Shown one piece after another: positions 787 through 51,418 of a stretch of 64,000 nucleotides of DNA. The notes under the pieces are model-generated. The model saw nothing but the letters and a program-made list of their open reading frames with translations. It was not told the DNA's origin and made no database searches. Within the stretch, counting starts at the first letter, position 1, and each line of letters starts with the position of its first letter. The position numbers and the translations under genes were made by a program. The stretch is from Takakia lepidozioides (Eukaryota; Plantae; Bryophyta), in contig CM060734.1 of the NCBI GenBank assembly GCA_030704615.1, forward strand, positions 19,034,001 to 19,098,000, read 5' to 3'.

Positions 787-1113
787 TGTCAAGTTATTTC
801 ACCACTAGTGTGAAACTAGCTAGAAAATAGCTAGCTTTTACATATTGACATTTGGGATTGGCCCAAGTGTCAATCCAGGGATCAAGGTAAATTTAGGCCC
901 TGGAGTGGTTATCTTCACGGCAAGCGCGGGAGGCCCATCTTTCTCGAGTTGAGCCTCACCGCGCCTAGCTATGGCGCCGTAGTGTGGATTCCCCATTGAT
1001 TGGGGTGGACTTGGCTTAACTTGTATTTGAGTGATGAGGTTATATATGCATGAGTTTATGCTTCAGCTTTGTGAGCTCGCATGAGCTTGTGCTTGTATTC
1101 TTCTTCTTTATCA
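787..1113 (+). repeat. terminal repeat A1
   Basis: Direct repeat of 8260-8584 (TGTCAAG...TTCTTCTTTATCA); similarity stops at 1113. Confidence 0.9.
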
Positions 1114-2009
1114 CTCGAGAAAGATGAGCTCGTATCTGTGAGTGCCAGATACGAGTTAGTTGTAGCACTTGTGGGAGAGAAACCAGGTTGTTATGCAAAG
1201 AGCACCGTGGAGTTCTTGGTTGTTAGGAGCGGAGGCGATGTGGGTTACAAGGTGGTAGACCTTGGCATTCGAGCTTCAGCTTCAGAGATGAAAGCACCAT
1301 GCTGCAGGTAATTCCAGAGCACCTTGATGGTTTCAGATTGTGTACATGCATGATGAGCAAGCACGATTGGGAAGAGGATCAGTCAAGAGCAGGTTATAGT
1401 GACTTTGGTGGCAAAGCTGAGAACTGGCCTTGGGAATGCGAGCTTTCATTGTGTGAAGGATTGCAAGACCAAGTGCATGTGTGGAGCATGCATTCAGCCT
1501 AGTTAGGCCTCCATCTTTAAGCTTTGGAAAGCTAGAAGAGAAGGTAAGGGGCTGATCTGCTCTTATGTGACAGTCCGACACTTGTAGAGCGTGTTCTGAG
1601 TTGGGGTTTCAACTACAAGCCTAGATAGAGCATGGCTCTTGAAATGGCAGGTGTAGGGGGCTGGAATAGGCTCTAAGACACATTCTATGGCCAAGGAGAG
1701 CGCATGAATAAGTGCTCACAAGGGCTGGAAACCAGCAAGGCTCGGTTGTTTGCCATTGAGTTGAGTGACGGGTTTTGGGATCTAAGTGAGAAAGAGGGCT
1801 TGGATTGTGGCAAACATCTTCCTCATGACTTGGAGCTATTATTGGTAGTGTGTGGGAGCCGAAGAGAGAAAGAATACCTTGCTGATTTCCTCACAGCCGC
1901 CATAGCTCGGTGCAAAAAAAGCTTAGAATTCAAGGAAATACTAACCCTAGCTTGGTGTGGCTAAACCCCTTTGGAGAAATGGCTAAACTGCCATGAGCAG
2001 CCATGGATG

Positions 2010-2780
2010 CAGCTGTGATGGGCTGTGTGGCCTTTGGGACTCTGACGGGCTGTGACGGCTGTGGCATGTGGGGCTGTGACAGGCTGTGATGGCTGTGGCC
2101 TGTGGGGCTGTGATAGGCTGTGATGGGCTGTGGCCTGTGGGGTTGTGATGGGCTGTGACCCTGTGACCTGTGTAGGCTGTGACCTGTGGCCTGAGGGGCT
2201 GTGATGGGCTGTGACAGGTGGCCCGTGGGGCTGTGACTGGCTGTGATAGGCTGTGACGGGCTGTGATCTGTGGCCTGTGGGGCTGTGACAGGCTGTGGCC
2301 TGTGATGTTGTGACCCTGTCACCTGTGTAGGGCTGTGACAGACTGTGATCTGTGGCCTGTGGGGACGGGCTGTGACCCTGTGACCTGTGTAGGGCTGTGA
2401 TGGGCTGTGATGGGTTGTGACGGACTGTGACAGGTTGTGATGGGCTGTGACAGGCTGTGCCCTGTGGCCTTTGGGCTGTGACAGGCTGTGACAGGCTGTG
2501 ACCTGTGGCCTATGGGGCTGTGATGGGCTGTGATAAGCTGTGCCCTATGGCCTTTGGGGCTGTGACAGGCTGTGGCCTGAGGGGCTGTGATGTGCTGTGA
2601 CCTGTGGCCTATGGGGCTATGACGGGTTGTGACAGGCTGTGGCCTGTGGGGCTGTGATGGCCTGTGTGGGGCTGTGACGGACTATGACAGGCTGTGGCCT
2701 GTGGGGCTGTGGGGCTGTGACGGGCAGTGACCGGTTGTGATGGGTGTTGGGCTGTGGGGCTGTGATGGCTGTGACCTGTG
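2010..2780 (+). repeat. GGCTGTGA/GGCCTGTG degenerate minisatellite in the element's 5' leader
   Basis: Dozens of ~9-10 bp units; a homologous array is at 11615-12145. Confidence 0.9.
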
Positions 2781-3727
2781 ATCTGTGTGGGCCTGTGCTG
2801 GTTTGTGGTGGCCCGTGTTGACCTGTGGATGGCCTGTGCTGACTCGTGGAGGCACTGGTGGACTGCCTGGGGACTAGCATGTGGTCTTGAAGGCCAAATT
2901 TCGAAGCTCGTGGAGGGCGGTTTGAGGAGTATCTTCATGATATTCCCATGGTCATGCAAGTGAGGGAAGAGAGGAGAGGAAGAGTGTTGGGATGAGGGCA
3001 TGTTGGGGTTAGGCATTGCTTTAGCTTCTCTTCCTCGTAGTTTTCCACCCTCTCATTAGGCCAAGACCTTTCCGTAGGTGGAGGCAAGAGTCAGTCCGGG
3101 TTTGGGCTGGGGTGTCCTTGCAGGAGCAACACCGTGGAGTTGTTTTTAGTGTGGGGGAGTTGTCGTTCTGATTTCTTGTGTTTGGATCCTCCCATACCTG
3201 CATGCTTGATTGTGCGCCATGTTAGTTTTGTGTGGGCGCTTGTTTTTATAGGTGATTGGTCCGGATTTGATCACCGGCCAGTCCTAGAGCATGCTGTCGA
3301 TGGTGAGGCTAGGGTGATGACCAGTCAGACCATCTTTTTTTATCATATGGTGAGGTTGGAGGTGGTGACCAGCCAACCATAGGAGTGCTTGCGGTGGATG
3401 CAGGTACAGGTGCAGGCTTTGTTAGGAACCTAGCATTCCAAACCATAAGCCGCAACAGGTTCTCTACCCGGTTACCTTGTGGAGAGGGGGTTAGGGACAT
3501 GTTCATGACCGGTTGAGTGTCAGTTTGTCAACACGGAGGTGCCACTAATTGCTGGGGAGAGTGTCGGTTCGAGCACTAGCGATATTAGTGGGTACACGAG
3601 ATGAGGTGTGCGGTTTAGGCCACCTCCACCTCCTGTGTCTTCTACGGAAGGTTCTGATTCCGATTGTGAATCAGGAGGACTCACACCAGCGGTGCAAGTT
3701 GTTTCCTTGCCATTGTTGTGGGACACA

Positions 3728-5450
3728 ATGGAGGAGATGCATGGAGCTACCAAGGGGCTACGTAGGTACTCTGGAGCAGTGGGCACCATTGAGCTGGATG
3801 ATTTTATCCAAGAGTTTGATAGTTGGTAGCAAATGCGCAATCCACAACTATTTACGTCTTTCATGGCATGGAAGGGGTTGTTTCAGTACCTTGAAGGGCC
3901 GCCCATGGATGATTACCATGAGTTCAGGCGGGGGCATGAGGTTGAGATCGATGAGTGAAAGATGTACTGGTCACCCGACTATGTCTCCATCACTAGGGAC
4001 ACTAGAGCCACGAGGGCAGTGGCTACACCTGCAGCTGCACCGTCAGCTTCAACAAGCAGTAGTGGGACTAGTGGGACTAGTGGTACCGTAGCTACAACGT
4101 CGACCCAAGCCACTGCCGCACAAACACCAGTACCCGTGCCTGCCTTCAACCCTGTTGTGGAATTCTTCGAAGAGTTGAGAGGGAACTACCAAGGGGTGAG
4201 GACAGAGAAGTTGCGGAGCTTGCAAGAGTTCAAACGGAAGCCGACTGAGAGCTTGAGGGAGGCTTTCACTCGCATGAGGCGCTTGATAAATGTAACCCAA
4301 GGGGTTACGGAAGCTCAGGCAGTCCAATTCTGGTATGGGATATTGGACAAGGAGCTGAGGAGAAGGGTGCAGGATGCAACTCTCCTACAAGCGGCCCAAC
4401 CCACCTTAGCAAATGTGTTTTTGCTGGCAGAGCGGATAGAGCTCAACATGGTGGAGGAACGAATGGTCATGGTGGGATTTGCTAAGGAGACACCACGGGG
4501 TAGTGGTGCTCCTAGCCAACCACTACCTCAACGTGCTCAAGGCAACAAGGGGACTCATGTGAAGCCCAAGGAAGGACAGAGAGGACCTCAGATGCAGGGG
4601 TCTCTCCCTTCATTTGCAGGCCAACAACGGCGGAGGTGGTGTGTTGGACATGTGGAGGACCCCATGTCCAGAAGGATTGCCCAGAAGGAGGCAAAAGGCT
4701 GGCACATGCACAGCCTGCACAGTTGCAGTGTGGACATTGTGGCAAGCATGGGCATGGAGAGGCCCAGTGTTATGGTTTTGCATCCTGAGTTGCGCCCAGG
4801 CCAGTTCTAAGGGAACAATGGTGGCTGGGGGCGAGGTGGAGCAGCCCAGAGAGGACGAGGTGCAGGCCAAGGGCAAGCTCAACATGGCCAAGGACGCTGA
4901 GGTCAAGGTGTTGACCAAGGCATGGCCAACCGGCTTCAGCAGCTAGAGCAGAGGCTCGCTGCCATGGCTACAGCTCAAGTGGTACCGGCTCCAAGGCCGG
5001 ATGGTCCACCTCCGGTTCCTGAGGGAGGAGATATGGGAGGCATGGGATTCATGTGCGGGGCAGCACTACCACTAGTGCAAGTGGCGGCGGCGGCAGTGAC
5101 CCGAGGAGCAGCACGAGTTCCTGAGCCATAAGGTGCAGAGGTGGAGTTGGATCCACAGCATGGGGAGGCAAGCCGTCAAGCTAGGCTGCCTCAATCATTC
5201 ACATTGGCGGAGACAGTATCGACGCCATCCATGGTACCTAGTTCTCGCCTGACTGCTACCGAGGCGGAGATTACTGTGCCATTGGGGAGAGCCACACGGG
5301 CAGCACCACTACCTGCTGCCTTGGCTACGGCAGCTAGTGTGCTGATGGGGGCGGCAACATCTATGTGCCAGGCTCCATTGTTCTCGGCTACCATGATTGC
5401 GATGTCGGGGGTACAAAACTAGCTGAGGTGTTCAGACTGGCAGCTACACT
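3728..5450 (+). pseudogene. gag: gag with two zinc knuckles (copy 1), disrupted
   Basis: MEEMHGATKG...DFIQEFDSW; capsid-like EFKRKPTESLREAFTRMRRL; knuckles WTCGGPHVQKDC and CGHCGKHGHGEAQC at ~4640-4770; stops and frameshifts. Confidence 0.8.
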
Positions 5451-5580
5451 CTATATCTTGAGTCCTCATCTGAATCAAAGACCTCTCCATGTTACTGTAT
5501 CGGTAGCTGAGACCTGGGCGTGCAACAGGTGCAGGTTTGGGGGGCACGACAATGTCAGATTTCAGTATCAGAGAAGCTGT

Positions 5581-7819
5581 AGGTAGAGCCATTACACAAA
5601 TTCCACGCCCCACGGATGTGAGCCGAGTTTGAGCTTTCATGGGGTTAGCAAACTACTATAGATGGTTTGTCAAGGGATTTAGTGCTATCGCAAAGGCTCT
5701 AACCAAGCTGACTTGGAAGGTGGACCAGGAGTGGCAGTGGGAAGATGAGCAGGAACGAGTTTTTCAAGAGCTCAAGGCGAGGTTGACCTCGGCGCCTATC
5801 CTGAGACGACCCATCAGGGGGCGTCCCTTTCAGCTGCATACAGATTGGAGCATGCTGGGGCTTGGAGCGGTGCTCACACAGGTGGATGATGAGGGAAGAG
5901 AGTTCGTAGTGGCTTATGCTAGCCGCTCGAACAACGCTGCAGAGGCTAAGTACAGCTCATATGAGGGAGAGTGCTTAGCTGCAGTGTGAGCCGTGGCACA
6001 CTTCAGGTGCTATCTATATGGCAATCTCTTCACCCTTGTCACGGATCACCAGCCACTCAAGTGGTTGATGGAGTCAGACAAGCTTACGGGGAAGCTTGCA
6101 CGGTAGGCACTCATACTCCAGGAGTATGTCTTTCAGGTTGTGCATCAACCGGGTTTGGTCAATCGGGATGCGGATGGATTGAGTCACAATCCATGCATGA
6201 GCCAGCAGGATGACACTGGAGCTCGGTGGCATGGTGAGACGGACGAGGAGATGGTGCCGAGATGGCACGCATCTACATTTTTGTGTATTTTGGCAGCGGA
6301 ATGTCAGATTGAACCTACAATAAGGATGACTATAGACGGAGTGTCTGAGGACCCTGAGGTTAGTGACAAGCCATGTGGTGCCAGAGATATACATGAGGAT
6401 TCGGCTGTGTTGGACTACCTCCGTACTGGAGATACGGCAGCCACTGTGACTGCCAAGGAGAGGGATCGGATCCTTCAACGAGCCAAGAGGTTCAAGTGGG
6501 AGGGGATACACCTGCTCCGAGTGTGGGAGGATGGTCGGGTGAGGATTGTGCCTCACCCAACACAACGTGCACGGTTAGTGCGGCATGCCCATGTGGAGTT
6601 AGGGCATTTTGGAGTGCGACACACACACAATTTACTGCAGGGGCAGTATTGGTGGCATGGTATGCATATAGAGGTGCAACGGTTCGTGGCTAGGTGCATG
6701 GTGTGTGACAAGGTGCGTGTTTCATTCAACACCCTACACCACAGTTGAATCCTTTACCAATCATGGGATTGGGCTACAGGTGGAGTCTTGACTTCGCAGG
6801 ACCGTTGCCATTGACTATGCGTCACCACAGATATGTGTTGGTGATGGTGGAGCACTTCCCCAAGTGGATTGAGTTGGTTCCATTGCCTAACAAGGCTAGT
6901 GAGGGGGTTGCGTATGCATTCTTGGATCATGTGCTTAGCCGATTCGGTGCTCCAGCTGAGGTACTCACGGACCAAGGGAGAGAGTTCTTAGGGGAGTTTC
7001 AAGCTTTGTGTGATAAAGCCTTGATAGACCACCGCACCACTTCTCGGGATCATCCTGAGGCCAATGGCTTGGCAGAGAGAGTTGTTCAGACGGTGAAGAG
7101 GGGTTTGCGCAATTATGGCTTGCAGAAGGGACACCTAGGAGATTGGGATCTTTAGGTACCTTGGTTAGCCATGGGCTACCGGTTCAGCAAGCAAGCATCA
7201 CTTGCCTCCTTCTCACCATATTTTCTTCTTTTTGGCCCAAAGCCGGATTTGCCTGCAGCCATTCCTAGGGACACTGCTCAAGTTTTTAACCTTGACGATC
7301 CAGACGTGTGGGTACGTGCATGTGATCAGCGTGTGCAGAGTTGTTCAAGAAAGTCATGCCCATGGCTTTTGAGAACATTGCCATTGCACAGCACCGTGAT
7401 ACGTTGAGGTATGCCACTATATGTGGTGGAGGATATCGTCTTGGGGTTCGGAGGTTTAGCCCAGGTGACTATGTTTATTTGCAACAGACTGCTCCTACAA
7501 CCCTGAATGTCACTGCAGGGCAGGTTATTCTGAGGGTTCGAGAGGTGTTCCCCTCAGGAATCCTGATCTTGGAGGGTCGAGATGGCATGATTTGGAAAGA
7601 CCATGTGCGTAATTGTGCGCCATGTCACCTTCCCAATGTCGATGGCAAAGTTGACCCAAACTTGGCAGTGGTATCTACAGGTTTGAGGTGCATGCTCTGT
7701 GGGTCTGCCAAAGGGGCAGCCACCATGCTGGTGTGTGATCGATGCTCAAGAGGTTGGCACATGGGATGCTTGACACCACCTCTTGAGGAGATTGGTTGTG
7801 TCCACACTGCTTGGGATAG
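5581..7819 (+). pseudogene. pol: RT C-terminus, RNase H, integrase and PHD finger (copy 1), disrupted
   Basis: FMGLANYY; LHTDWSMLGLGAVL; HHCC (HAHVELGH...CMVC); WSLDFAG / LTDQGREF / GLAERVVQ; CMLC...VCDRC...WHMGC. Confidence 0.9.
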
Positions 7820-8078
7820 TGGCAGTGGACTTGATTAGAGGCAGCTAACAAGACATGGGAGGCCAAGCTCATATGAGTCAATACATGAGAACCCAGGCTC
7901 AAGTTCACAGGTTGCAAGATGGCGACTAACGATGGGGCAACTCTTGCACCTGGCCTCTTGATCTATCGAGTTTGAGTGTAGTAGGGACAATGGTGGAGGA
8001 CTTAGTGAGGCTACGGTCACTATCACATCTTGTGGCTACCTGGACTTAGAGGGACCTAAGCACCAGCCAGAAGGGCGA

Positions 8079-8257
8079 TTGTGGTGGACTAGCGACTGCC
8101 ATAGTGGGCAGCCTAGCGACTGACTAGTGGCAGCCTAGTGGTTGGACTAGAGGCTGGTCTAGTGGTGGACTAGTGGTATACTAGTGTGTAGTGTGTACAT
8201 GTGTTGTGTGGTTTTGGATAGCGATGTAGTTGTGTAGCGATATGTATGCGCACGACA
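8079..8257 (+). repeat. terminal repeat B1 (internal copy)
   Basis: TTGTGGTGGACTAG...GCACGACA; repeated at 8585-8741; rich in GGACTAGT units. Confidence 0.9.
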
Positions 8258-8259
8258 GC

Positions 8260-8584
8260 TGTCAAGTTTCACCACTAGTGTGAAACTAGCTAGGAAATAG
8301 CTAGCTTTTACATATTGACATTTGGGATTGGCCCAAGTGTCAAATCCAGGGGTCAATGCAGATATAGTCCCTGGAGTGGTTATCTTCACGGCAAGCGCAT
8401 GAGGCTCATCTTTCTCGAGTTGAGCCTCACCGCGCCTAGCTATGGCGCCGTCGTGTGGATTCCCCATGGTGTGGGGTGCACTTGGCTTGACTTGCATTTG
8501 AGTGATGAGGTTATATATGCATGAGTTTATGCTTCAGCTTTGTAAGCTCGCATGAGCTTGTGCTTGTATTCTTCTTCTTTATCA
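8260..8584 (+). repeat. terminal repeat A2
   Basis: Copy of 787-1113, separated from B1 by only GC. Confidence 0.9.
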
Positions 8585-8741
8585 TTGTGGTGGACTAGTG
8601 ACTGCCATAGTGGGCAGCCTAGTGGTTGGACTAGTGGCTGGACTAGTGGTGGACTAGTGGTATACTAGTGTGTGGTGTGCACATGTGTTGTGTGGTTTTG
8701 GACAGCGATGTAGTTATGTAGCAATATGTATACGCACGGCA
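8585..8741 (+). repeat. terminal repeat B2 (element 3' end)
   Basis: Copy of 8079-8257, ends in CA, followed by the TSD. Confidence 0.9.
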
Positions 8742-9332: not shown

Positions 9333-10824
9333 TGTCGTGCGCTTACATATCGCTACACAACTACATTGCTATCCAAAACCACATAACACATGTGCATACC
9401 ACACACTAGTATACCACTAGTCCACCACTAGTCCAGCCACTAGTCCAACCACTAGGCTACAACTAGTCAGTCACTAGGCTGCCACTATGCTGCCCACTAT
9501 GGCAGTCACTAGTCCACACAATGATAAAGAAGATGAATACAAACATAATCTCATGCATATATAACCTCATCACTCAAATACAAGTCAAGCCAAGTGCACC
9601 CCACGCCATGGGGAATCCACACTACGGCTCCATAGCTAGGCACGGTGAGGCTCAACTCGAGAAAGATGAGCCTCCCGCGCTTGCCGTGAAGATAACCACT
9701 CCAGGGCCTAAATCTGAGTGTAGTAGGGACAATGGTGGAGGACTTAGTGAGGCTATGATCACTATCACATCTTGTGGCTACCTGGACTTAGAGGGACCTA
9801 AGCACCAGCTAGGGTGGCGATTGTGTGGACTAGTGACTGCCATAGTGGGCAGCATAGTGGCAGCCTAGTGACTGACTAGTTGTAGCCTAGTGGTTGGACT
9901 AGCGGTTGGACTAGTGGTGGACAAGTGGTATACTAGTGTGTGGTGTGCACATGTGTTGTGTGGTTTTGGACAGCGATGTAGTTGTGTAGCAATATGTATG
10001 CGCACGACAGCTGTCAAGTTATTTTACCACTAAGGTATTCTTGCTCTTTCGGCTCCCACACACCACCAATAGTAGCCTTAAGCCATGAGGGAGACGGTTG
10101 CCACAAACCAAGCCTTCTTTCTCACTTAGACTCCCCAAACCCGCCACTAAATTCAATGGCAAACAACCAAGCCTTGCTGGTTTCCAGCCCTTGTGAGCAC
10201 TCATTCAAGCATTTTCCTTGGCCATAGCATCTGTCTTAGAGCCTATTCTAGCCTTCTACATCTGTCACTTCAAGAGCCATGCTTTATCTAAAACCATCAA
10301 GGTGCTCTAGAATTACCTGCAGCATGGTGCTTTCATCTCTGAAGCTGAAATCGAATGCCAAGGTCTACTACCACCTCTAACCCACCCATCGCCTCCGCTT
10401 CTAACAACCAAGGGCTCCATGGTGCTCCTTGCATAACAACCTGGTTTCTCTCATTCTCAAACAAAAACCACAAGTGCTACAACTAACTCGTATCTGGCAC
10501 TCACAGATACGAGCTCATCTTTCTCGAGTGATAAAGAAGATGAATACAAACATAATCTCATGCATATATAACCTCATCACTCAAATACAAGTCAAGCCAA
10601 GTGCACCCCACGCCATGGGGAATCCACACTACGGCGCCATAGCTAGGCGCAGTGAGGCTCAACTCGAGAAAAATGAGCCTCCCGCGCTTGCCATGAAGAT
10701 AAACACTCCAGGGCCTAAATCTGCCTTGACCCCTGGATTGACACTTGGGCCAATACCAAATGTCAATATGTAAAAGCTAGCTATTTCCTAGCTAGTTTCA
10801 CACTAGTGGTAAAATAACTTGACA
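9333..10824 (-). mobile_element. ends-only piece of retroelement copy 2 (A1, 5' leader, inverted B1/A2 junction segment, A2, B2)
   Basis: TGTCGTGC at 9333 and CTTGACA at 10824, flanked by a perfect CAGT TSD (9329-9332, 10825-10828). A1' 10529-10824, A2' 9522-9716, B2' 9333-9521; 9713-10032 is inverted. Confidence 0.9.
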
Positions 10825-11614
10825 CAGTTATATGCCTGTACCGACCCAAGTGAAAAGACGGTGGAGACGAAAGTATTGGAATCCAATGTCATCCCAACTT
10901 GTTGAGGCACGTGGAACCCGACAATGCCGCTACCAACCAAGGGATTGCCCTGTGCCTTCCTGGCCTAGCCAACATCCTTCGTGCCGAACTCAAGGCCATA
11001 TGCAATATTGAGTGCAGGGTTGCAAAAAATTCGGCGGAAAACCAATGATACATGGCATGTTGTGCCACATAGGAAGATTTCGAACCGGGAAAAAACGGCA
11101 AAAGCTAGCCTAATAACTCATCCATCCAAATCAAATCTATCACCAAACAATAGTACTACTAATGGCCATACCTAACTAGTTCAAGACGGCGGCCACTTCC
11201 AAAAGGACAAATGTGCCTTTGCGAGGTGGACACGTATGCCGTGAACACATGCATAACCACTGAGATTGAGGCCCCCGCTGGTACTAATCGCACGATGTCT
11301 CGCAGCCCCGTAGTTCGTGATTTTCAAGCTGGAGAAGTGCAGGAGACTGAGTTCCCCCAGCAACGAGTGGAAACGTAGAAGATAGTCTTTCTTTTTCACT
11401 TCAGCGAGAGACAAGAAGAAGGTGAGAGAGAGAATGAGAGGTCGCAAGCTCAACATGACGCTAAAGGAGATAACAGAGAAGAGTGCGGCTTTCTTCACAG
11501 CCGCCATAGCTCGGTGCAAAGAAGCCTAGAGTCCAAGAGACACAAACCCTAGCCCTGCTGCATGGCTAAACCTTGGAGAACTTGCTAAACTGCCATGAGT
11601 GGCCATGGATGGGT

Positions 11615-12145
11615 GACTGAGGGCTGTGACAGGCTGTGCCAGGCTGTGCCCTGTGGCCTGTGGGGCTGTGACGGGTTGTGAGGGGCTGTGACAGGCTGTG
11701 CCCTATGGCCTATGGGGCTGTGACGGGCTGTGAGGGTCTGTGACAGGCTTTGGCCCATGGGGCTGTGACCTTTGTGACCTGTGTAGTGCTGTGACAGGCT
11801 GTGCCATGTGGCCTGTGGAGCTGTGACGGGCTGTGATGGGCTGTGACAAGCTGTGCCCAGTGGCATGTGGGGCTGTGATGGGCTGTGGACAGGCTGTGTC
11901 CTATGGCCTGTGGAGCTTGAGGGGTTGTGCAGACTGTGCTTGTGGCCTTTGGGTTTGTGATGGGCTGTGACAGGCTGTGACATGTGGCCTTGGGGGTTGT
12001 GATGGGCTGTGACAGGCTGTGGCCTGTGGGGCTGTGATCCTGTGGCCTGTGTAGGGCTGAGATAGGCTGTGACCTGTGGCCTTTGGGGCTGTGATGGGCT
12101 GTGGGGCTGTGGCCTGTGTGGGGCTGTGATGGCTGTGACCAGTGA
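11615..12145 (+). repeat. GGCTGTGA minisatellite (5' leader)
   Basis: Same units as 2010-2780, shorter array. Confidence 0.9.
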
Positions 12146-13086
12146 TCTGTGTGGGCTTGTGCTGGTCTGTGGTGGCCCGTGTTGACTTGTGGACGGCCTG
12201 TGCTGACTCGTGGAGGTACTGTGGACTGCCTAAGGACTGGCATGGGGTCTTGAAGGCCGAATTGAAAGCTCATGGAGGGCGGTTTGAGGAGTATCTTCAT
12301 GTGATATTCCCATGGTCATGCAAGTGAGGGAAGAGAGGAGAGGAAGAATGTTGGGATGAGGGCATGCTAAGGTTAGGCATTGCTTTAGCTTCTCTTCCTC
12401 GTAGTTTTCCACCCTCTCATTAGGCCAAGGCCTTTCCGTAGGTGGAGGCAAGAGTCAGTCCGGGTTTGGGTTTCCTTCAGGAGCAACACCGTGGAGTTGT
12501 TTTTGGTGTGGGGGAGTTGTCTTGCTGATTTCTTTGTGGTTTGAATCCCTTTCCATACCTGCATGCTTGACTGTGCGCCATGTTCGGTTTGTGTGGGCGC
12601 TTGTTTTATGGTGATTGGTCCGGATTGGATCACGGCCAGTCCTAGAGCATGCTGTCGATGGTGAGGCTGGGTTGATGACCAGTCAGACCATCATTGTTTC
12701 TCCTGTGGTGAGGTTGGAGGTGATGACCAGCCAACCGTAGGAGTGCTTGCGGTGGATGCAGGTGCGGGTGTAGGTTATGTTAGGAACCTAGTAGTCCAAA
12801 CCATAAGCTGCAACAGGTTCTCTACCCGGTTACCTTGTGGAGAGGGGGTTAGGGACATGCTCATGACCGGTTGAGTGACAGTTTGTCAACACAGAGGTGC
12901 CACTAGTTGCTGGGGACAGTGCCGGTTCGAGCATTAGCGATACTAGTGGGTACACGAGACGAGGTGTGCGGTTTAGGCCACCTTCACCTCCTATGTCTTC
13001 TACGGAAGGTTCTGATTCGCATTGTGAATCAGGAGGACTCACACCGGCGGTGCAAGTTATTTTCCTTGCCATTGTTGTGGGACACA

Positions 13087-14850
13087 ATGGAGGAGATGTA
13101 TGGAGCTACCAAGGGGCCACGAAGGTACTCAGGGGCGGTGGCACCCATCGAGTTGCATGATTTTATCCAAGAGTTTGATAGTTGGTGTGATTTGCAGCAA
13201 ATGCGCAATCCACAACTATTTACGTCTTTCATGGCATGGAAGGGGCTATTTCAGCACCTTGAGGGGCTGCCTATGGATGATTACCATCAGTTCAGGCGGG
13301 GGCATGAGGTTGAGATCGAGGAGTGAAAGATGTACTGGTCACCCAACTATGTCTCCATCACTAGGGGCACTAGAGCCACGAGGGCAGTGGCTACACCTGC
13401 CGCTGCACCGGCAGCTTCAGCAAGCAGTAATGAGACTGGTGATACCATAGCTACGACGTCCACTCAAGCTACTACGCTGCCCTAGCACCAATGGCGGGGC
13501 CTGCTTCAACCCTGTTGTGGAGTTCTTCGAAGAGTTAAGAGGGAACTACCAAGGGGTGAGGACAGAGAAGTTACGGAGCTTGCAAGAGTTCCAACGGAAG
13601 CCTACTGAGAGCTTGAGGGAGGCTTTCACTCGCATGAGGCGCTTGATAAATGTAACCCAAGGGTTTCAGAAGCTCAGGAAGTCCAATTCTGGTATGGGAT
13701 ATTGGACAAGGAGCTGAGGAGAAGGGTGCGGGATGCAACTCTCCTACGAGCGGCCCAACCCACCTTAGTAAAATGTGTTTTTTGCTAGCAGAGCGGATAG
13801 AGCTCAACATGTTGGAGGAACGAGTGGTCATGTAGGAATTTGCTAAAGAGACACCACGGGGTAGTGGTGCTCCTAGCCACCCACTATCTCAACGTGCTCA
13901 AGGCAATAAGGGGGCTCAAGTGAAGCTCAGGGAAGGACAGAGGAACCTCAGATGCAGGGGTCCTCTCCCTTCATTTGCAGCCAACAACGGGCGGAGGTTG
14001 TGTGTGTTGGACATGTGGAGGATCCCATGTCAAGAAGGATTTCCCCCAGAGGGAGGCAAAGGGCCGGCACATGCACAGCCTCACAGTTGCAGTGTGGGAT
14101 TGTGGCAAGCACGGGCATGGAGAGGCCCAGTGTTATGTTTGCATCCTGATTGCGCCCAGGCCAGTTCCAAGGGAAACAATGGTTGGCCGGGGCGAGGTGG
14201 AGCAAGCCCAGAGAGGACGAGGTGGCTAGGCATGAAATGCAGGCCCAAGGCAACACTCAACATGGCCCAATGATGCGAAGGTCAGGTTGTTGACCAAGGC
14301 ATGGCCAACCGTCTTCAATCAGCTAGAGCAGAGGCTCGCTGCCATGGCTACAGCTCAGTGGTACTTACTGATCCAGGCCGGATGGTCCCCCTCCTGCTCC
14401 TGAGGGAGGATATGGGAGGCATGGATTCCTGTGAGCGGAGCAGCACTACCACTAGTGCAGTGGTTTTGCTGCACCGTAACTCGAGGACAGCACACGAGTT
14501 CCTGAGCCACGAGTGCGAGGTGGATTTTGATACCACAGTGTGGGGTAGGCAATCCGTCAGGCTAGGCTTCCCTCAGTCATTCACGTTGGGGAGACAGTGG
14601 TCGATGCCATCCATGGCACCTAGTTCTCGCCCGCCTGTTACCGAGGCGGAGGGTTTATTATGCCATTGGAGAAGCTTACACACAACAACGGGTAGCACCA
14701 CTACCCAGTGTTGCCAAGGCTACGGCAGCTAGTGTGCTGCTGGGAAACGGCCACATCTGTGTGCCAGGCTCCATTGTTCTCGGCTACCATGATTGCGACG
14801 CCGGGGGTAAGACCAGTTGAGGTGTTCAGGCTGGCAGCTACACTCTGTGA
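13087..14850 (+). pseudogene. gag: gag with two zinc knuckles, frameshifted
   Basis: MEEMYGATKG...; CVCWTCGGSHVKKD and CGKHGHGEAQCY at ~14000-14140. Confidence 0.8.
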
Positions 14851-15029
14851 GAGTGTGGGAGGTTACTTCAATTCATCTTTTGCGGGATAGGTGTAGTGCC
14901 GGAGGATCCTCGGATTTGAGGGTCAAGACTGCCACGTCGGCCCCGCCATGACAAAGCTGCATCTGCCAGGTTGATGGAGCTAACCAGCTGCCAGCCATTG
15001 AGCGCGCCATGGTGACACGTGGAGTTTGT

Positions 15030-15500
15030 CATGTTAGACAACCATGATGGCATTTTCTGTTTGAGTGGACCGGGCAGGCAAGAGGTACCGCCACTTGGCG
15101 TGTCTTGTTGGACTCGGACTCAGCCATTGAATACTGGGCAGACTTTTTATTGTTAGGCTTGGGCTCACGGAGGCATATGGAAGCCTTGTCCTTTCCAGAT
15201 ACCGACGTCTCTGGGATGATCGGAGCAGGCTCGGGGCATGACACGACGTGAGTTGGCTATCAGACTACGGCCGGACACCACCTATAAATGGCTCAATGAT
15301 GCGAGCCAAGGCATTGTGACAGACGTCGGTCTTATACGATGTCCTAGTTGGTGGGCACAGTGTTGTTACCCAATGGGCTTCACACCCTGGATTTCTTGGG
15401 ATGAGTTCAGCTTCCTATAGGTCTGGATGGTATTAGGGGGAGGCCCCCTGTGACGTTCATAGGAGAGTTGCGGTTGCCTAGAGGGCAAGATGCCGACACT
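15030..15500 (+). pseudogene. retroviral-type aspartic protease, heavily frameshifted
   Basis: RVLLDS(G)...QPL at 15099-15130, located between gag and the methyltransferase; boundaries approximate. Confidence 0.55.
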
Positions 15501-15829
15501 AGCAGCATCATATTTCACAGCTGTAGTGACTTGGCCTGGAGAGTTGCTAGAAGGGCAACGCTCATTTTCAGAGGATACACACCTCAGGAGAGCAGGTGAC
15601 AGTATGTGTAATGGCGGAGTTGCCTACCATGGTTGCTCAGACTCTATTTGGGGGCACGGGCAAGGATTTGTAGTGGGGTTTGCTGATCAAACGGGGGCAA
15701 CCAGCCTGGGTAGAGGCTTTTTGTACCATCAGGGACGAGGGAGAGTGCGAGGATTGCACCAGGCCACCCAACTCAGTTGTCTCCATTGGACACCACACCT
15801 ATTGTGTGGCAGTATCCGGATGAAAGCAT

Positions 15830-16790
15830 TTGTCTTCTGGACTTGTTTGGCCGGGATCGCACCGGATTGGTGCTGTGGTATCAGACAGGTGTACGAGTTT
15901 GGGCGTTACCTGTATTTGGAGCGGGATGAGACTGCACGACATGTTTCACTTCGTCATGTTGCTCAGTTGGTGCAGCAGTACCATGAGTTGTTGCCGATGT
16001 CTGCAGTTCGTGGATATCAGCAGGCCTTGCCAGCAGACATTTTGTTGTTGGGGACGCAGGATTTGGAGCGGGTTCGCTCCATTGATCTGGTAGTGGCAGG
16101 TTGGCCCTACCAAGGGCATTCATCAGCTGGGCATGGCAATGGATTGTGAGACTCGAGTCGGGTCTGTTTTGGGAGATGGTGCGGGTTTTGCGCCACTTGC
16201 AGCTTCATCAAGCTGTATCTCCAACATACATATTGGAGAATGTGCCACTGATGGGCAATTCTTGGGCTAGGGTGATGGCCAGTGTGCATCAAGTCCGGGT
16301 CGTGGCTTGGGTCAGCAGTGTTGCTAGATGCAGCTATAGTGGGGTCACGGGCTCATCGTCCACGGCTATGGTGGACTAACTTGATGCCACTTGCACTGCT
16401 CAAGCGTGCATTTGATGGGGTGCAGCGGCCAGCATACCTCACAGTGGATAGCATTTTGGACACAGGGAGGCAGTCTCAGAGTGTGAGACATGATGACTGT
16501 TCGCCTTTGGCAGTGGTCAACAAGGTGGGTCAACCACGAGCAGCATTACCTACACTGCTCAGCTTCCCAGGATCGCATGCTTTCCGGGATAGTGGACCTG
16601 GCCTCCTGTGGGATGCTCAGTTGCAGCAGTTAGTGGAGCCTAATGCTGACGAGCGTGAGCGGGCAATGGATTTTACCACTGGTACCACGGCGGTGCCGTC
16701 TCTTTCTGAGGCATCATGTCGTCAAGTGTTGGGGCAAGCAATGGATCTCAATTGCTTGACTTGGATTATCAGCTTGGCTATGGCTGAGCA
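15830..16790 (+). pseudogene. C5 cytosine DNA methyltransferase domain, DNMT3-like, embedded in pol
   Basis: Motifs in canonical order: I LDLFG (~15838); II YLYLERD; IV IDLVVAGWPYQG (16081-16116, PC changed to PY); SGLFWEMVRVL; VI YILENV (ENV 16236-16244); VIII DAAIVGSRAHRPRLWWTNL; IX ERERAMDFTTGTT; X RQVLGQAMD. Confidence 0.9.
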
Positions 16791-17169
16791 ACGCAGAGTG
16801 CATAGTACACTTCCCTCGATGGTCTCTCTACCTACCGAGACGGTACAGGCAGTGAGTGGGGGCAAGCATGAGAGGACCACGTGGTGCAGACATCCATGGC
16901 ACACGTGGGAGGTGCTCGAGGTTCAGATGGAGTTGGCAGCCAGGGCGGCGGTGATGGATGAGGTTGGGGATTTTTCTCGAGTTGAGGAAGTCCTTGAGGA
17001 TGAGATGATGGGGCAAGATGAGGCCTTGTCATTGACTAAGCAGGCAGGGAGTATTGCTCAAGAGGTTGCAACATAGCAACCACTGGACGCGTCCTCTACC
17101 TCTAAGCCCACTGGACTTAAGGTGCAGTTACGGAGGACAATTGGGAGCCTGACATTGGACCCATTGTCA

Positions 17170-18575
17170 CCGGAGGAGAGAGACGACGTATACGGCGGTT
17201 CCTGAGGGCTTACAGGAATTGCTTTGCCTTCAGCTTGAAGGACTTGGGAGCACTGAAGGGTCAAGAGATTCGTATTGAGTTGGCCACTGACACGCCAATC
17301 TTTCGGAGACTCTATAGGTACAGTGACATGGAAAGATCTTTGATTCAGATGAGGACTCAAGATCTTTGGGAGGCTGGTTTGGTGGAGCTCTCTGGTGGAG
17401 AGTATGCTTCAGCCACAGTGATGCCAGCCAAGAAGGATGTCTATGGCAATTGGACGGAGAGACGTATGTGCGGTGATTATCGGCCTGTAAATCGTCAGAC
17501 CAAGTCCGATAAGTATGCCATGCCAACACCGGAGGAGATTTTTGATGCCATTCGGCATGCTAAGGTCTTTAGCACTTTGGATTTATGATCCGGATATCAC
17601 CAGTTGCCGATCAAGGAGGCGGACAAGCAGAAGACGACATTCTGGGGGATCAATGAGCATGGCAAGGATTGCCTATATCAGTGGCGGTTCTTACCATTTG
17701 GGCTTAAGAATGCTCCTGCAGAGTTTCAGAGAGTCATGGATAGGATTCTAGTAGGGGTGGACTTTGCTCGGTGCTACATAGATGATATCATCATCTTTAA
17801 TGCTACGGTAGAGGAGCATGAGAGACACCTTCAGGTGATATTGGAGTGCTTGAGAGCGCACGAATTAAAGTTGCATCCGGGGAAATGCAAGTTTTTCCAC
17901 AACCAGATTGAGTATCTGGGTCACATGATATATCCTGGAGGATTGGGGGTACAACAGACTAAGGTAGAGGCCATTGCACAAATTCCACGCCCCACGGATG
18001 TGAGCCGAGTTCGAGCTTTCATGGGGTTGGCAAACTATTATAGACGGTTTGTCAAGGGATTTAGTGCCATTGCAAAGGCTCTAACCAAGCTGACCAAGGT
18101 GGACCAGGAGTGGCAGTGGGAAGATGAGCAGGAACGAGCTTTTCAAGAGCTCAAGGCGAGGATGATCTCGGCGCCTATCCTGAGACGACCTATCAGGGGG
18201 CGTCCCTTTCAGCTGCATACGGATTGGAGCATGCTGGGGCTTGGAGCGGTGCTCACACAGGTGGATGATGAGGGAAGAGAGTTCGTAGTGGCTTATGCTA
18301 GCCGCTCGAACAACGCTGTAGAGGCTAAGTACAGCTCATATGAGGGAGAGTGCTTAGCTACGGTGTGGGCCGTGGCATACTTTAGGTGCTATCTATACGA
18401 CAATCTCTTCACCCTTGTCACGGATCACCAGCCACTCAAGTGGTTGATGGAGTCAGACAAGCTTACGGGGAAGCTTGCACGGTGGGCACTCATACTCCAT
18501 GAGTATGACTTTCAGGTTGTGCATCGACCGGGTTTGGTCAATCGGGATGCGGATGGATTGAGTCGCAATCCATGC
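17170..18575 (+). pseudogene. pol: Ty3/Gypsy reverse transcriptase and RNase H
   Basis: RMCGDYRPVN; KVFSTLDL*SGYHQ; LPFGLKNAPAEFQRVM; YIDD (17775-17786); KCKFF...YLGH; TDWS...GAVL; TDHQPL; DADGLSR. Confidence 0.95.
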
Positions 18576-18899
18576 ACGAGCCAACATGATGACACTGGAG
18601 CTTGGTGGCATGAGACGGACGAGGAGATGGTGCCGAGATGGCATGCATCTGCATTTTTGTGTATCTTGGCATCGGGAGGTCACGTTGGACCTACAACAGG
18701 GATGTCTGTAGACGGAGTGTCTGAGGACCCTGAGGCTAGTGATGAGCCAGGTGGTACCCGAGATATACATGAGGATTCGGCTGTGTTGGACTACCTCCGT
18801 ACTGGAGACACGGCAGCCACTATGACTGCCAAGGAGAGGGATCGGATCCTGCAACGAGCCAAGAGGTTCAAGTGGGAGGGGATACACCTACTCAAGTAT

Positions 18900-20206
18900 G
18901 GGAGGATGGTCGGGTGAGGATTGTGCCTCACCCCACACAACGTGCACGGTTAGTGCGGCATGCCCATGAGGAGTTGGGGCATTTTGGAGTGCGACGCACT
19001 CATAGTTTACTGCAGGGGCAGTATTGGTGGCGTGGTATGCATACAGAGATGCAACAGTTCGTGGCTAGGTGCATGGTGTGTGATAGGGTGTGTGCTTCAT
19101 TCAATGCCTCTACACCACAGTTGCATCCTTTACCAATCATGGGATTGGGCTACAGGTGGAGTCTTGACTTCGCAAGATCGTTGCCACTGACTATGCGCCA
19201 CCACAGATATGTGTTGGTGATGGTGGAGCACTTCTTCAAGTGGATTGAGTTGGTTCCATTGCCTGATAAGGCTAGTGAGGGGGCTGCGTATGCATTCTTG
19301 GATCGTGTGCTTAGCCGATTCGGTGCTCCAGCTGAGGTACTCACGGACCAAGGGAGAGAGTTCTTGGGGGAGTTTCAGGCTTTGTGTGATAAAACCTTGA
19401 TAGACCACCGCACCACTTCTCGGGATCATCCTGAGGCCAATGGCTTGGCAGAGAGAGTTGTTCAGACGGTGAAGAGGGGTTTGCGCAATTATGGCTTGCA
19501 GAAGGGACACCTAGGAGATTGGGATATTCAGGTGCATTGGTTAGCCATGGGCTACAGGTTCAGCAAGCAAGCATCACTTGCCTCCTTCTCACCGTATTTC
19601 CTTCTCTTTGGCCGAGAGCCGGATTTGTCTGCAGCCATTCGTAGGGACACTGCTCAAGTCCTTAACCTTGACGATCCGGACGTGTGGGTACGTGCATGTG
19701 ATCAGCGTGCAGAGTTGTTCAAGAAAGTCATGCCCATGGCTTTTGAGAACCTTGCCATTGCACAACAGCGTGATACGTTGAGGTATGCCACTATACGTGG
19801 TGGAGGATATCGTCCTGGGGTTCAGAGGTTTAGCCCTGGTGACTATGTTTATTTGAAGCAGACTGCTCCTACGACCCTGGATGTTACTGCAGGGCGTGTT
19901 ATTCTGAGGGTTCGAGAGGTGTTGCCCTCAAGGGTCCTGATCTTGGAGGGTCGGGATGGCATGACTTGGAAGGACCATGTGCGTAATTGTGCGCCATGTC
20001 ACCTTCCCAATGTCGATGGCAGAGTTGACCCAAACTTGGCAGTGGTACCTGCAGGTTTGAGGTGCATGCTCTCTGGGTCTGCCAAAGGGGCAGCCACCAT
20101 GCTGGTGTGTGATCGATGCTCAAGAGGTTGGCAAATGGGATGTTTGACACCACCTCTTGAGAGGGTTCCTGATGGAGATTGGTTATGTCCACACTACTTG
20201 GGATAG
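18900..20206 (+). CDS. DDE integrase with C-terminal PHD finger (open frame within a pseudogenised pol)
   Basis: HHCC zinc domain; D (WSLDFA), D (LTDQGREF), E (GLAERVVQ); C-terminal CMLS..VCDRC..WQMGC..DWLCPHY, a decayed C4HC3 PHD that is better preserved in copy 1. Confidence 0.9.
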
Positions 20207-20773
20207 TGGCAGTGGACATGACTAGAGGCAGCTAACACGACATGGGAGGCCAAGCTCATAGGAGTCAATACACGAGAACCCAGGCTCAAGTTCACAGGTT
20301 GCTAGAAACAGAGCACATGGCGGAGGAGGACCAGCCGCGCGGAGAAGCTGGTGAACAAAGGGAGGAAACAGCAACAGAGGGCGACCCTGACAACATGGAC
20401 ATAGAGAAGCCCGACACCCTTGTTGAGGAAGCGACGCCGAAGGGGAAGAAGGCTGTGTAGATGGGGAGGATGGCTGCGATTGTGGCTCAAGCAGAGGCAT
20501 CTAGGGGTGCTCCTCCCAAAGGACCGAAGGTGATTCTCTCATTTCTCTTGATTGTGGGCAGTGGAGAAGGCATGAAAATTGCGTTCGTTGATCCACGCAG
20601 TTTTTATGCCCTCTTTACTTCTGTTTTCTGTGTCATCATTATGTGTTAGCATATTCGGATCTGTATGAGGGCTCATGGAAGTGTAGACGACAGAGAAAAC
20701 AGGGTGCTCTCAATTCAAACATGTCCTTTTGCTAGACCTTTCATTCTGCACATAGTTGGACATTTCCTGAACC

Positions 20774-20979
20774 GCAGAGACTGAAGGATGAGAGAAGGGC
20801 AATGCGAGCATCCCCAAAAATTGCGTGTTCTCACATTGTCATACCCTGCACTTCTCTCAGTGTATTATCAAGGGAGGTGAATGAAGGGGAGAAAGAGAAC
20901 CCCCTCAAAATTGGGTACGTTGACGCACGCAATTTCTGAGGGTTCTCTCAATGCCCTTCTCTCATCCTTCGGTCTCTGC
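20774..20979. mobile_element. MITE-like element with ~28-bp terminal inverted repeats
   Basis: GCAGAGACTGAAGGATGAGAGAAGGGCA ... TGCCCTTCTCTCATCCTTCGGTCTCTGC; no clear TSD. Confidence 0.65.
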
Positions 20980-21656
20980 TTTCCCTAATATATGAAGAAA
21001 GGTCTGGGAAGTCTGAGCAGTGAGAGATGTCTTTCAAACTTCAAAAATTGAATGTGTTTACGGAGCTCTTTTATGAGTGAAGAAATTGGGTGCGTTGTCG
21101 TACTCAGTTCTAGGCAGGAAAGGAGGGAGAACCATTTATTTATTTATTTATTTTGGGCACTTGTGGCCCTCCAAAATTGAGTGCGTTGACGCACACAGTT
21201 TCAGAGGGCCACAAACGCAGCTGTGGTTCGTCCCCCTTGAGTCATGCTTCTGGTTTTGGAGGGTAGTTCATGTTTGTTGCTTGTCTGGGCACGCTTACTT
21301 CCATTGGGCAAATCAAAACCCTTCAGAACTGAGTGCGTTGACGCGCTCAGTTTCAGAGGGTCTGGTAGCTGATATTTTGTATGTCCTTCCATTGAGATTA
21401 GCTTCCGGTTTTTTTTTTGGGGGGGGGGAGATTCCTCTTTTGGTGTCTGTATGGACATGTTTGTTGGCAGCCAAGAATGGTGTCAATAGCTTATACCTGA
21501 CGAAAGGGGACTGTTCGGGACAAATGGTAATCCTCCACTCCGATAAAGGATAGCATTCTTCTCTTATCTGCTTCATTTCATTTTTCTGTTCACCCCTGTT
21601 CTTTTTCCCTTTTGCATGCATTCGCTCATTTGTGCTTCGTGTTGTCTTCAATGCAG

Positions 21657-50587: not shown

Positions 50588-51418
50588 GTGCAAGAGTCGA
50601 ACGTCCTCCCCAATGTGGTGGAGTCCATGTGCCCTGACGAAGTCTGGCACATAGAACGCACCAGTGTTGGGTCTACGTGCACGGCAATCAGAGCCACCAA
50701 TCGTGAAAAGTGCAAGTCTTCCATATCTAGAGGCAAGGTCCGCACTCCGGCTCCGACCTTCACTGGTTTGTTCCAGCCTTACGGGCAAGCAGAGGCGAAG
50801 AACCACAAATTCTGGTTCTGCCCTGACGATTGTGGTAGGTGCGTGCGTGGGACTGTGCGACCATTGGTGGTCATGAAGCCTCCTCCACCAAGCATTTGGC
50901 CTGTGAAGGTGGGGACACATCTCACAACTCAGGAGATTGCCATGTTGGAGGAGGCAGGCTTCTCCCTTCAGCGAGAACCCTCTGTACATGCAGGTGCTTC
51001 TACTTCAGCCAATTCTCGAGTGCCACCACCCAACGCTGATGCATGGCCAACTAAACGAAATGGAAAGCTGGTTCGTCGTTTCCCTCCGACTGCCGAACAC
51101 TTCGGCAAGATAGAATCCGCTCGAATGCTTCAAGGTCGTGTTACAGGCACTACGGAAGTTTCACATCCTAGGTATGGTCGGATCTACACTATGATGACCT
51201 CCACATCTGCTATGCATGACAGATTGTACGACATCACAGTTTCAAATTTCCCCAACTGCACATGTCATGATTTTGTTGGCATGCTTTCAACAAGTTTGGG
51301 AAAGACAAGAAAATTTATACCCTGCAAGCATCTGTATTTTATCTTCCTGAACATAATGGTTTGTGATCCCAGACGCGACATCTTCATTCACCAGGCCACT
51401 ATAAGTTCAACGAGATGA
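50588..51418 (+). pseudogene. SWIM zinc-finger protein, probably a Mutator-like transposase C-terminal fragment
   Basis: YDITVSNFPNCTCHDF...FIPCKHLY matches SWIM CxC...CxH; Cys-rich FWFCPDDCGRC; no 5' part. Confidence 0.65.

Follow-up and report, generated by a model that had tools for sequence, protein, structure and literature searches.

A Gypsy-type retrotransposon family with a predicted DNMT3-like cytosine methyltransferase, represented by a decayed copy in the moss Takakia lepidozioides

Can a retrotransposon of a land plant carry its own cytosine methyltransferase, and what would such an enzyme do for it? The question is raised by a 64,000-nucleotide stretch of the Takakia lepidozioides genome (contig CM060734.1, positions 19,034,001 to 19,098,000; hereafter the window), in which an initial annotation, made from the letters alone, had recognised a Gypsy-like element with a DNMT3-like domain between protease (PR) and reverse transcriptase (RT) and with a PHD finger on the integrase (INT). 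The Gag-PR-RT-RNase H (RH)-INT order of Ty3/Gypsy elements, with a DDE integrase, is indeed present, and RT, RH, integrase and PHD finger are all matched above the Pfam cut-offs (PF00078, PF17917, PF17921, PF00665 and PF00628). We refer to this element as the flagged copy. A second copy lies in the same window, and coordinates of both are collected in Table 1. Related loci and proteins bear L and P numbers, respectively.

The methyltransferase motifs I, IV, VI, VIII, IX and X were read at 15837-16746, at the place and in the canonical, non-permuted order claimed for them. A profile built from eight relatives finds the domain in the six-frame translation of the window with 341 bits (E = 2e-105, at 15883-16791). 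The Pfam family PF00145, proposed as a check by the initial annotation, gave a divided answer. The three frame pieces of the flagged copy given to Pfam did not match it, because the methyltransferase domain is split over two frames; 13 of the 14 relatives scanned did match (12 above the cut-off and one at it), the sole miss being P0016, which has internal gaps. A phmmer search with the two largest DNMT frame pieces found 0 matches among solved structures. The profile, against the same kind of target, ranks DNMT3A best (E = 9e-25), together with DNMT3C and DNMT3B, with DRM2 (3e-11), HaeIII and HhaI behind (bacterial 5e-11). The structure model of the Marchantia relative P0004 (pLDDT 84) returned DNMT3B, DNMT3C and DNMT3A as top Foldseek matches (E = 1e-17, template modelling score 0.72), a fold result that belongs to this relative and not to the window's own broken sequence. 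By profile and by modelled fold, the intronless domain between PR and RT is thus classified as DNMT3-like, and not as DNMT2; methylation activity is predicted.

A search with the C-terminal piece returned 28 proteins, of which 15 are named: ten from Marchantia, two from Calypogeia, two from Sphagnum and one from Monoraphidium. These named liverwort and peat moss matches bear out the proposed occurrence in land plants. The profile search gave 86 proteins and added Closterium and Chromochloris; the integrase-PHD search added Pleodorina, Volvox, Tetrabaena and Haematococcus, as well as a complete RT-RH-INT-PHD frame from a Coleochaete transcriptome. At 50% identity, 514 clusters exhibit E <= 1e-30 to the profile, the best 150 of which were inspected. 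A metagenome scan covering 3 of 64 parts kept 80 loci, eight of them family members and the others prokaryote-like methyltransferases at 22-39% identity, while the viral contigs searched yielded phage-type methyltransferases only, or nothing.

The catalytic cysteine is kept in 77 of 92 relatives (13 have no motif match, one has serine and one valine). Together with ENV, RxR and motif X it is conserved in further cluster representatives (107 of 132, with no motif match in 24). In all five full-length Marchantia models checked (Mp_4g09160, Mp_Vg00370, Mp_Vg00540, Mp_5g06330 and Mp_5g06860; 1278-1281 aa), the protease motif, PCQ, ENV and motif VIII lie in one frame, and four of the five match the motif-X pattern. 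These Marchantia models, and the locus L161, provide the open frames with PCQ expected of a family-wide domain rather than of a one-off insertion. In run X1, 61,502 contigs fell on a 7.5 kb stretch of the element. The family is high-copy, and depth summed across contigs is similar for the DNMT bins (0.69-1.09 million, M) and for RT-integrase (0.77-1.29 M), these sums being no copy numbers. Two runs presumed to be RNA gave few contigs, mostly at 85-95% identity, and are not counted as evidence of expression. Judged by these sequences, the DNMT is a trait of the family in liverworts, peat mosses and green algae.

The initial annotation had placed the domain inside pol and had seen a chromatin writer and reader in one polyprotein. 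Neither claim is supported as worded for this clade. About 90 codons past the end of motif X, an in-frame TAG (17074-17076), followed by CAA CCA, ends the first open reading frame (ORF1) before the RT-bearing ORF2, and only a readthrough product would carry the DNMT together with RT, integrase and PHD finger. A stop is found at the same place in all six loci readable across this point (window, TAG-CAACCA; L081, TAA-CAACCC; L082, TAG-CAACCC; L161, TAG-CAATCA; L086, TAG-TAATCA; L087, TAA-CAATCA). In L161, which belongs to the clade of P0020 with a DNMT about 49% identical to that of Marchantia, both ORFs around the stop are open and share one frame: ORF1, which has PCQ, and ORF2, of 1047 codons. 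The full-length Marchantia ORF1 models end 77-80 residues past the domain. Among the relatives, 37 of 92 are (Gag-)PR-DNMT proteins lacking RT, some of them cut by contig ends, and 28 of 112 are RT-RH-INT-PHD proteins lacking the DNMT. In this clade the DNMT closes the Gag-protease ORF. The UAG-CAR-YYA context at the window's stop is that of tobacco mosaic virus (TMV), and the exact motif follows 3 of the 819 TAGs on the + strand of the window. For TMV, CAR YYA after UAG is described as essential for readthrough, at about 10% in vivo, and as working after UAA too (PMC2754532); in-frame gag/pol stops are described in fission-yeast elements (10.1101/2022.12.06.519325). Standing at the end of ORF1 before the stop, the enzyme would be made at the level of Gag, and we infer that Gag-PR-DNMT may be the major product, with the enzyme packed near capsid dosage.

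The relatives occur in two layouts, the DNMT lying either before RT or between RNase H and integrase. Among named members, the former are streptophytes and the latter chlorophytes. In a quick RT tree (112 rows), the two layouts form the two sides of one branch (Shimodaira-Hasegawa-like approximate likelihood ratio test, 97), the window groups with Marchantia, L081 and L082 (support 97), and P0289, which lacks the DNMT, falls among the rows of the second layout. In a FastTree analysis of the DNMT (201 of 292 rows after thinning of near-duplicates), the 18 before-RT rows make one clade (99) and the window groups with Calypogeia, Marchantia, L081 and L082 (100); its only outgroups were prokaryotic and phage sequences and one dinoflagellate protein, with no host DNMT3 or Klebsormidium sequence among the rows. 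Supports in both trees are local values, not bootstraps. One old capture followed by a later move of the domain fits these trees, and two captures are an alternative. As side observations, L085 contains a 2027-codon RT-RH-DNMT-INT-PHD frame of the chlorophyte layout (1400-7483), and some relatives of this layout (P0044, P0045, P0068, P0072, P0260 and P0269) carry a G-patch domain (PF01585). L161 and L162 are young, intact elements, the terminal repeats B1 and B2 of L162 being identical over 106 bases. L161 was assembled as a circle. Both lie in a genome bin titled uncultured Synechococcales cyanobacterium, which is most likely eukaryotic contamination.

The flagged copy itself is dead. The codon of its catalytic cysteine reads tyrosine (16108-16110), and the methyltransferase motifs fall in two frames, interrupted by several breaks and one stop. 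ORF1 exhibits many frame changes when tiled against an intact relative, Gag is disrupted by frame shifts and stops, and RT has a premature stop at 17586. Its PHD finger retains five of eight zinc ligands and has lost three; all eight are present in 12 of 12 relatives checked. Its ends are displaced. Some of the breaks, one-base compensating indels, may be assembly errors rather than decay. The element span first annotated (11490..20302) does enclose the coding domains, and no terminal repeats lie inside it. Both repeats are absent from the whole flagged stretch and sit in the neighbouring pieces 9333-10824 and in the second copy. By blastn, 11484-14846 and 17962-20306 resemble the second copy at 73-93%; the two copies differ by substitutions at 92 of 1580 sites, 72 of these being transitions. 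The tandem array in the leader of both copies is 550-760 bp long and G/T-rich, and the relatives L081 and L161 have no such array.

TG...CA ends, a 4-bp target duplication and a purine tract are found in the neighbouring copies and in other loci, not in the flagged stretch. Two identical flanking long terminal repeats (LTRs) are not found; the repeats are split, in the order A-internal-B-A-B, in the second copy of the window (787-8741) and at the 3' ends of L086 and L162. In the second copy, A1 and A2 are identical at 304 of 322 positions and B1 and B2 at 146 of 156, and three of the four bases of the target duplication match. An internal segment of this copy is deleted, and a short inverted piece of RT fills the gap (5455-5580). 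The rearranged piece at 9333-10824 includes an inverted inner piece with a purine tract-B-GC-A start (9717-10032). It is probably the displaced ends of the flagged copy, because its break, at leader position 1880 of the second copy, coincides with the start of the flagged copy. Inversions have rearranged both copies, and short stretches are deleted where the pieces join (9333-11484; 5455-5580), suggesting template-switch repair or an assembly problem. In run X1, at least 39 contigs extend past the CA of B into flanks that differ from one another (agreement 0.35), and in at least 40 the sequence ahead of A is mixed (agreement 0.6).

Beginning with A's final base, a run of 16 bases is complementary to a stretch within A itself (15/16 for A1 and 16/16 for A2 of the window, 15/16 in L081 and 15/16 in L161). 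The letters that pair differ among the three families, and in each of them 0 of 2000 shuffles reach this match. A TATA-like word lies about 28 bases upstream of the self-primer site in L081 and L161, and an ARAGORN search found no tRNA. These sequences are consistent with a self-priming signal having the layout of Tf1, with a transcription start predicted. Given where the primer site (behind A) and the purine tract (ahead of B) lie, conventional reverse transcription would yield cDNA with a B-GC-A LTR at either end. Four A|B junctions were read, two of them in the window and one each in L162 and L086; in every case the two bases are the same as in the gap between purine tract and B1 (AT, AT, CT and TT), as end-to-end joining of cDNA ends predicts. 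The B-A junction carries the palindrome ACAGCTGT in the window, L081, L085, L161 and L162, with two transitions in L086. A staggered cut at CA^GCTG would leave a CA at each of two ends, with overhangs of 2 bases that resemble those of processed retroviral ends, and foamy-virus integrase is described as cutting a palindromic circle junction (PMC1180852). L085 exhibits a GACAGCTGTC junction at 9310 and a repeated block before it; given this locus, the split-repeat design may span both layouts.

No chromodomain is found at the integrase's C-terminus, where a PHD finger stands instead. Its best structure matches are CHD4, KDM5B/A PHD1, PHF12, PHF21A, ATXR5, DPF3, BAZ2A/B, AIRE and UHRF1. Most of these bind the unmethylated H3 tail, and the fingers of CHD4, KDM5A/B, PHF21A, BAZ2 and AIRE are readers of unmethylated H3K4. 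Unmethylated H3K4 is the mark read by the ADD domain of DNMT3A.

We think it rather probable that, before insertion, the enzyme methylates the cDNA of its own element within the particle, as was proposed for such elements in PMC5890265. The RNA would begin inside repeat A, its first 12-14 bases priming the minus strand as in Tf1. Ribosomes would mostly halt at the amber codon and release Gag-PR-DNMT, a minority (about 1/10, by analogy with TMV) reading through into RT-RH-INT-PHD, and each particle would contain about as many methyltransferases as capsid proteins. The protease would release the enzyme, which, having no PWWP or ADD targeting domain, would act on the DNA packed with it. The linear cDNA, with its B-GC-A LTR at both ends, would be joined end to end, and the integrase would open the two-LTR circle at the internal CA^GCTG palindrome, in the left LTR, to yield A-internal-B-A-B. 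The PHD finger, closest to binders of unmethylated H3K4, may keep insertions clear of active promoters. The likely gain would be a new copy that arrives pre-methylated like host chromatin, hiding from surveillance and damping of its own expression both being possible. The methylation context could be CG, as for SymbioDIRS-Dnmt3, described as methylating CG de novo in yeast (PMC5890265), or CHH, as for moss DNMT3 (PMC9516144).

Several observations weigh against cDNA methylation by a capsid-dosage enzyme. The nearest tested relative, KnitGypsy-Dnmt3 of Klebsormidium nitens, gave no methylation in yeast, a result its authors regard as inconclusive (PMC5890265). The observed/expected CpG ratio of the element, 0.49-0.55, is no different from that of the remaining window (0.47) and so offers no hint of a special substrate. 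The depth of run X1 is much lower over the protease-DNMT linker (0.07-0.24 M), where the flagged copy is most broken, and the rows inspected in that run lie outside the catalytic codon of the organism's other copies. The exact UAG-CAR-YYA is present in only two of the six stop contexts (window and L161), three others differing by one base and L081 by two. Dosage at the Gag level is not needed family-wide, because there are single-ORF relatives (P0123, of 2811 aa, and P0076 of Closterium) and most chlorophyte-type relatives have the DNMT between RNase H and integrase. In favour of cDNA methylation, the ratio of nonsynonymous to synonymous divergence (dN/dS) of the DNMT between the window and L081, L082 and L084 is 0.08-0.22 in five finite comparisons (the sixth is saturated; RT control, 0.057) and points to purifying selection between families, these ratios being rough with dS at 1.4-2.5, near saturation. 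Among the near-identical dead copies L081-L084 it is 0.51-1.47 (RT control, 0.53), the pattern of decay after insertion, which we do not use as support. A domain kept for nucleic-acid binding or RNA methylation (packaging, chaperoning of the self-primer or shielding of the internal CAGCTG) rather than for DNA methylation would suit both the inactivity of the Klebsormidium domain and a place at the end of Gag-PR with likely capsid-level dosage. The conserved catalytic cysteine, ENV, RxR and motif X and the DNMT3 rather than DNMT2 fold argue otherwise, and we consider this function unlikely. An enzyme active mainly on host chromatin, at the insertion site or at host defence loci, through the integration complex or after nuclear release, is to us just as unlikely. 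It would accord with the PHD finger's resemblance to those of CHD4, KDM5A/B, PHF21A, BAZ2 and AIRE and with the single-ORF and chlorophyte forms that join DNMT, integrase and PHD finger in one chain. In the present clade, however, DNMT and PHD finger are in separate ORFs with a stop between them, the enzyme has no targeting domain, and the methylome of K. nitens is described as not unusual (PMC5890265). That the DNMT is an ordinary part of a single Gag-Pol polyprotein, and TAG 17074 a mutation of decay, might be read from the many stops of the flagged copy, from P0123 and P0076 and from three Marchantia models that run from DNMT into RT (P0010, P0050 and P0005); these models have internal gaps and are probably spliced predictions. 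The same-position stop in six of six loci, including the intact L161, largely refutes this explanation, which is very improbable also in view of the ends of the full-length Marchantia ORF1 models and of the common separate ORF2 proteins. A one-off capture of a host methyltransferase gene, or an insertion nested in the flagged copy, has next to no probability: the second window copy does lack the DNMT, but it lacks the protease and half of RT along with it and is therefore a deletion product, while in dozens of relatives Gag, PR and this domain are collinear and the RT and DNMT trees agree in placing the window with Marchantia, L081 and L082.

For the ends of the element, we regard the circle route as reasonably probable. 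The same A-internal-B-A-B order could be copied from a transcript reaching B2, by template switches like those of DIRS/PAT elements and without a two-LTR circle. This layout equals that of DIRS-type elements, just four junctions were read directly, and in two runs no A|B junction indel reaches 5% of depth, a uniformity that templated copying easily explains. The second permutation predicted by the circle route, A-B-A-internal-B, was not confirmed among the loci examined. L083 ends as purine tract-B-CA-flank without GC-A-B (11700-11840), an ambiguous end that could be this permutation or a recombination between B1 and B2. These points count against the circle. The templated origin is nevertheless somewhat unlikely: an ordinary LTR, B-GC-A, is delimited by the purine tract preceding B1 and the primer site following A1, each A|B junction repeats the two bases found behind the purine tract, and TG...CA ends with a 4-bp duplication are characteristic of a DDE integrase rather than a tyrosine recombinase. 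The ORFs scanned contain no tyrosine recombinase match, and an rve integrase instead, unlike DIRS/PAT elements. A bolder combination, which we offer tentatively and with more doubt than confidence, is an ancient green-plant-wide Gypsy lineage with a DNMT3 at capsid dosage through a TMV-type leaky stop, tRNA-free priming, and obligate integration from a self-methylated two-LTR circle opened at CAGCTG. The circle would be obligate for want of a usable CA at the linear right end after self-priming.

Table 1. Coordinates, in the window, of the two element copies and their features
Feature	Position	Strand	Evidence or remark
Flagged copy: leader, ORF1, ORF2, part of 3' untranslated region	11484..20306	+	blastn against second copy
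Leader tandem array, 10-bp-based GGCTGTGACA-like units	11621..12172	+	also in second copy, 2012-2774
Gag with two zinc-knuckle remnants (14005-14028, 14095-14118)	12945..14130	+	tblastn tiling with P0167; weak Retrotrans_gag match
Aspartic protease, broken; catalytic LLDS 15105-15116	15031..15355	+	Asp_protease_2 matches below cut-off in relatives
DNMT3-like C5 cytosine methyltransferase (predicted), motifs I-X in canonical order	15820..16806	+	profile, fold, motif reading
Motif I LDLFG	15837-15851	+	
YLERD motif	15913-15927	+	
DLVVAGWPYQG (motif IV GWPYQG 16099-16116)	16084-16116	+	
ILENV motif	16230-16244	+	
AHRPRLWWTNL motif	16351-16383	+	
ERERAMDF motif	16651-16674	+	
RQVLGQAMD motif	16720-16746	+	
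In-frame amber stop ending ORF1, predicted readthrough site	17074..17082	+	UAG-CAR-YYA (TMV-type) context
Reverse transcriptase (YIDD 17775-17786) and RNase H	17178..18510	+	PF00078, PF17917 above cut-off
Integrase zinc finger and DDE core (D 19160-19174, D 19340-19354, E 19442-19462)	18965..19462	+	PF17921, PF00665 above cut-off
PHD finger closing ORF2	20063..20206	+	PF00628, 25.9 vs 24 bits cut-off
Rearranged element ends, A start (TG) 10824, B end (CA) 9333	9333..10824	-	perfect 4-bp duplication ACTG
Second copy, complete ends	787..8741	+	without protease, DNMT and 5' RT
Terminal repeat A1 (TG...CA)	787..1113	+	predicted self-primer site 934-949
Predicted primer-binding site	1113..1128	+	pairs with site inside A, not with a tRNA end
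Conserved non-coding motif downstream of pol	7921..7950	+	6/6 sequences checked
3' end: purine tract 8063-8077, AT, B1 8080-8257, GC, A2 8260-8583, AT, B2 8586-8741	8063..8741	+	
Palindrome GACAGCTGTC at B1-A2 junction of second copy	within 8063..8741	+	

The conserved non-coding motif lies about 100-150 bases past the pol stop, amid otherwise unalignable 3' regions (window, 7921-7950; L081, 14368; L083, 11597; L086, 14151; L161, 6752; L162, 2122), and is possibly a packaging or dimerisation signal. The flagged copy breaks at 20306, directly before it. To the right of the element, six dispersed copies of a 42-base motif (20569-21360) and a 54-base inverted repeat (20774-20979) probably belong to another repeat family. 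Elsewhere in the window, decayed frames on the - strand (30772-32249) resemble by eye the RT and zinc-binding region of a non-LTR retrotransposon, with no Pfam match. A probable host gene on the - strand (34662-39491) has a DUF7815 exon (PF25122, 39078-39491) and a long low-complexity exon. An imperfect inverted repeat of about 1 kb (42206-43272), with several arms at 81-97%, is foldback-like or resembles a miniature inverted-repeat transposable element. On the + strand, a 300-codon frame (50516-51418) ending in a SWIM zinc finger below the cut-off is possibly of DNA transposon origin.

The question whether retrotransposon methyltransferases mark their own cDNA dates from 2018 and has stayed open, the known hosts being difficult to handle. 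Marchantia polymorpha has elements of the same kind, their uninterrupted Gag-PR-DNMT frames annotated as hypothetical genes, and Sphagnum, Calypogeia and volvocine algae have them as well, so that the question becomes testable. Inventories of bryophyte DNA methyltransferases miss this mobile DNMT3 source. From the gene layout, each particle would be expected to contain an unusually large amount of enzyme, and the end structure offers a concrete account of DIRS-like split repeats in an element with a DDE integrase. If the circle route is true, two-LTR circles, usually seen as dead ends, would be the normal integration substrate.

Our literature search, with subscription papers and Repbase outside its scope, found no description of land-plant or chlorophyte members, of the readthrough stop or of the circle route. 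Such elements are referred to as from "streptophytes", land plants not being named, in the accessible parts of PMC12344493 and 10.64898/2026.05.21.726589, whose figures or supplements may include some. The corresponding parts of 10.1101/363937, PMC11982613, PMC9516144, PMC6317226 and 10.1101/2021.11.30.470311 make no mention of them in land plants, and the words PHD and Marchantia are absent from the main text of PMC5890265 (term search). The comparisons below rest on what these and the other accessible texts describe.

With host DNMT3 (animal DNMT3A/B, moss PpDNMT3) and DRM2 as references, the element domain shares the catalytic fold and motif order of DNMT3, at about 20% identity. It has neither PWWP/ADD nor UBA domains and no introns, and it is not permuted as DRM is. 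Tf1/sushi elements and the plant Tcn1 chromoviruses, reference sequences of which are not in our trees, have a self-priming signal after the CA of the 5' repeat, as here; unlike the present family, they have a chromodomain, ordinary paired LTRs and no methyltransferase. The in-frame gag/pol stop of Tj1 and Tosmo elements lies between Gag and protease, whereas here it follows the DNMT. Gypsy-7a_cRei of Chlamydomonas reinhardtii also has a PHD finger in a Gypsy polyprotein, with an intergenic insertion bias, but it has paired LTRs and no methyltransferase is mentioned for it in the accessible text (10.1101/2022.06.16.496473). SymbioDIRS-Dnmt3 of Symbiodinium likewise has a Dnmt3-type domain in a retroelement with A-coding-B-A-B repeats (PMC5890265); it is a DIRS element with a tyrosine recombinase, in contrast to the DDE integrase with 4-bp duplication found here. 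The closest known system is KnitGypsy-Dnmt3 (de Mendoza et al. 2018, PMC5890265), a likeness drawn by description, with no match labelled Klebsormidium among our family search results. Both have the Gypsy domain set, an intronless, non-permuted Dnmt3-related domain with key residues and purifying selection (rough, in our case), and a DIRS-like arrangement of terminal repeats. The DNMT of KnitGypsy-Dnmt3 is described as part of the Pol ORF and as having been acquired in the K. nitens lineage, whereas in the present clade it stands at the end of the Gag-PR ORF before a readthrough-type stop, and its relatives span liverworts, mosses, other charophytes and chlorophytes.

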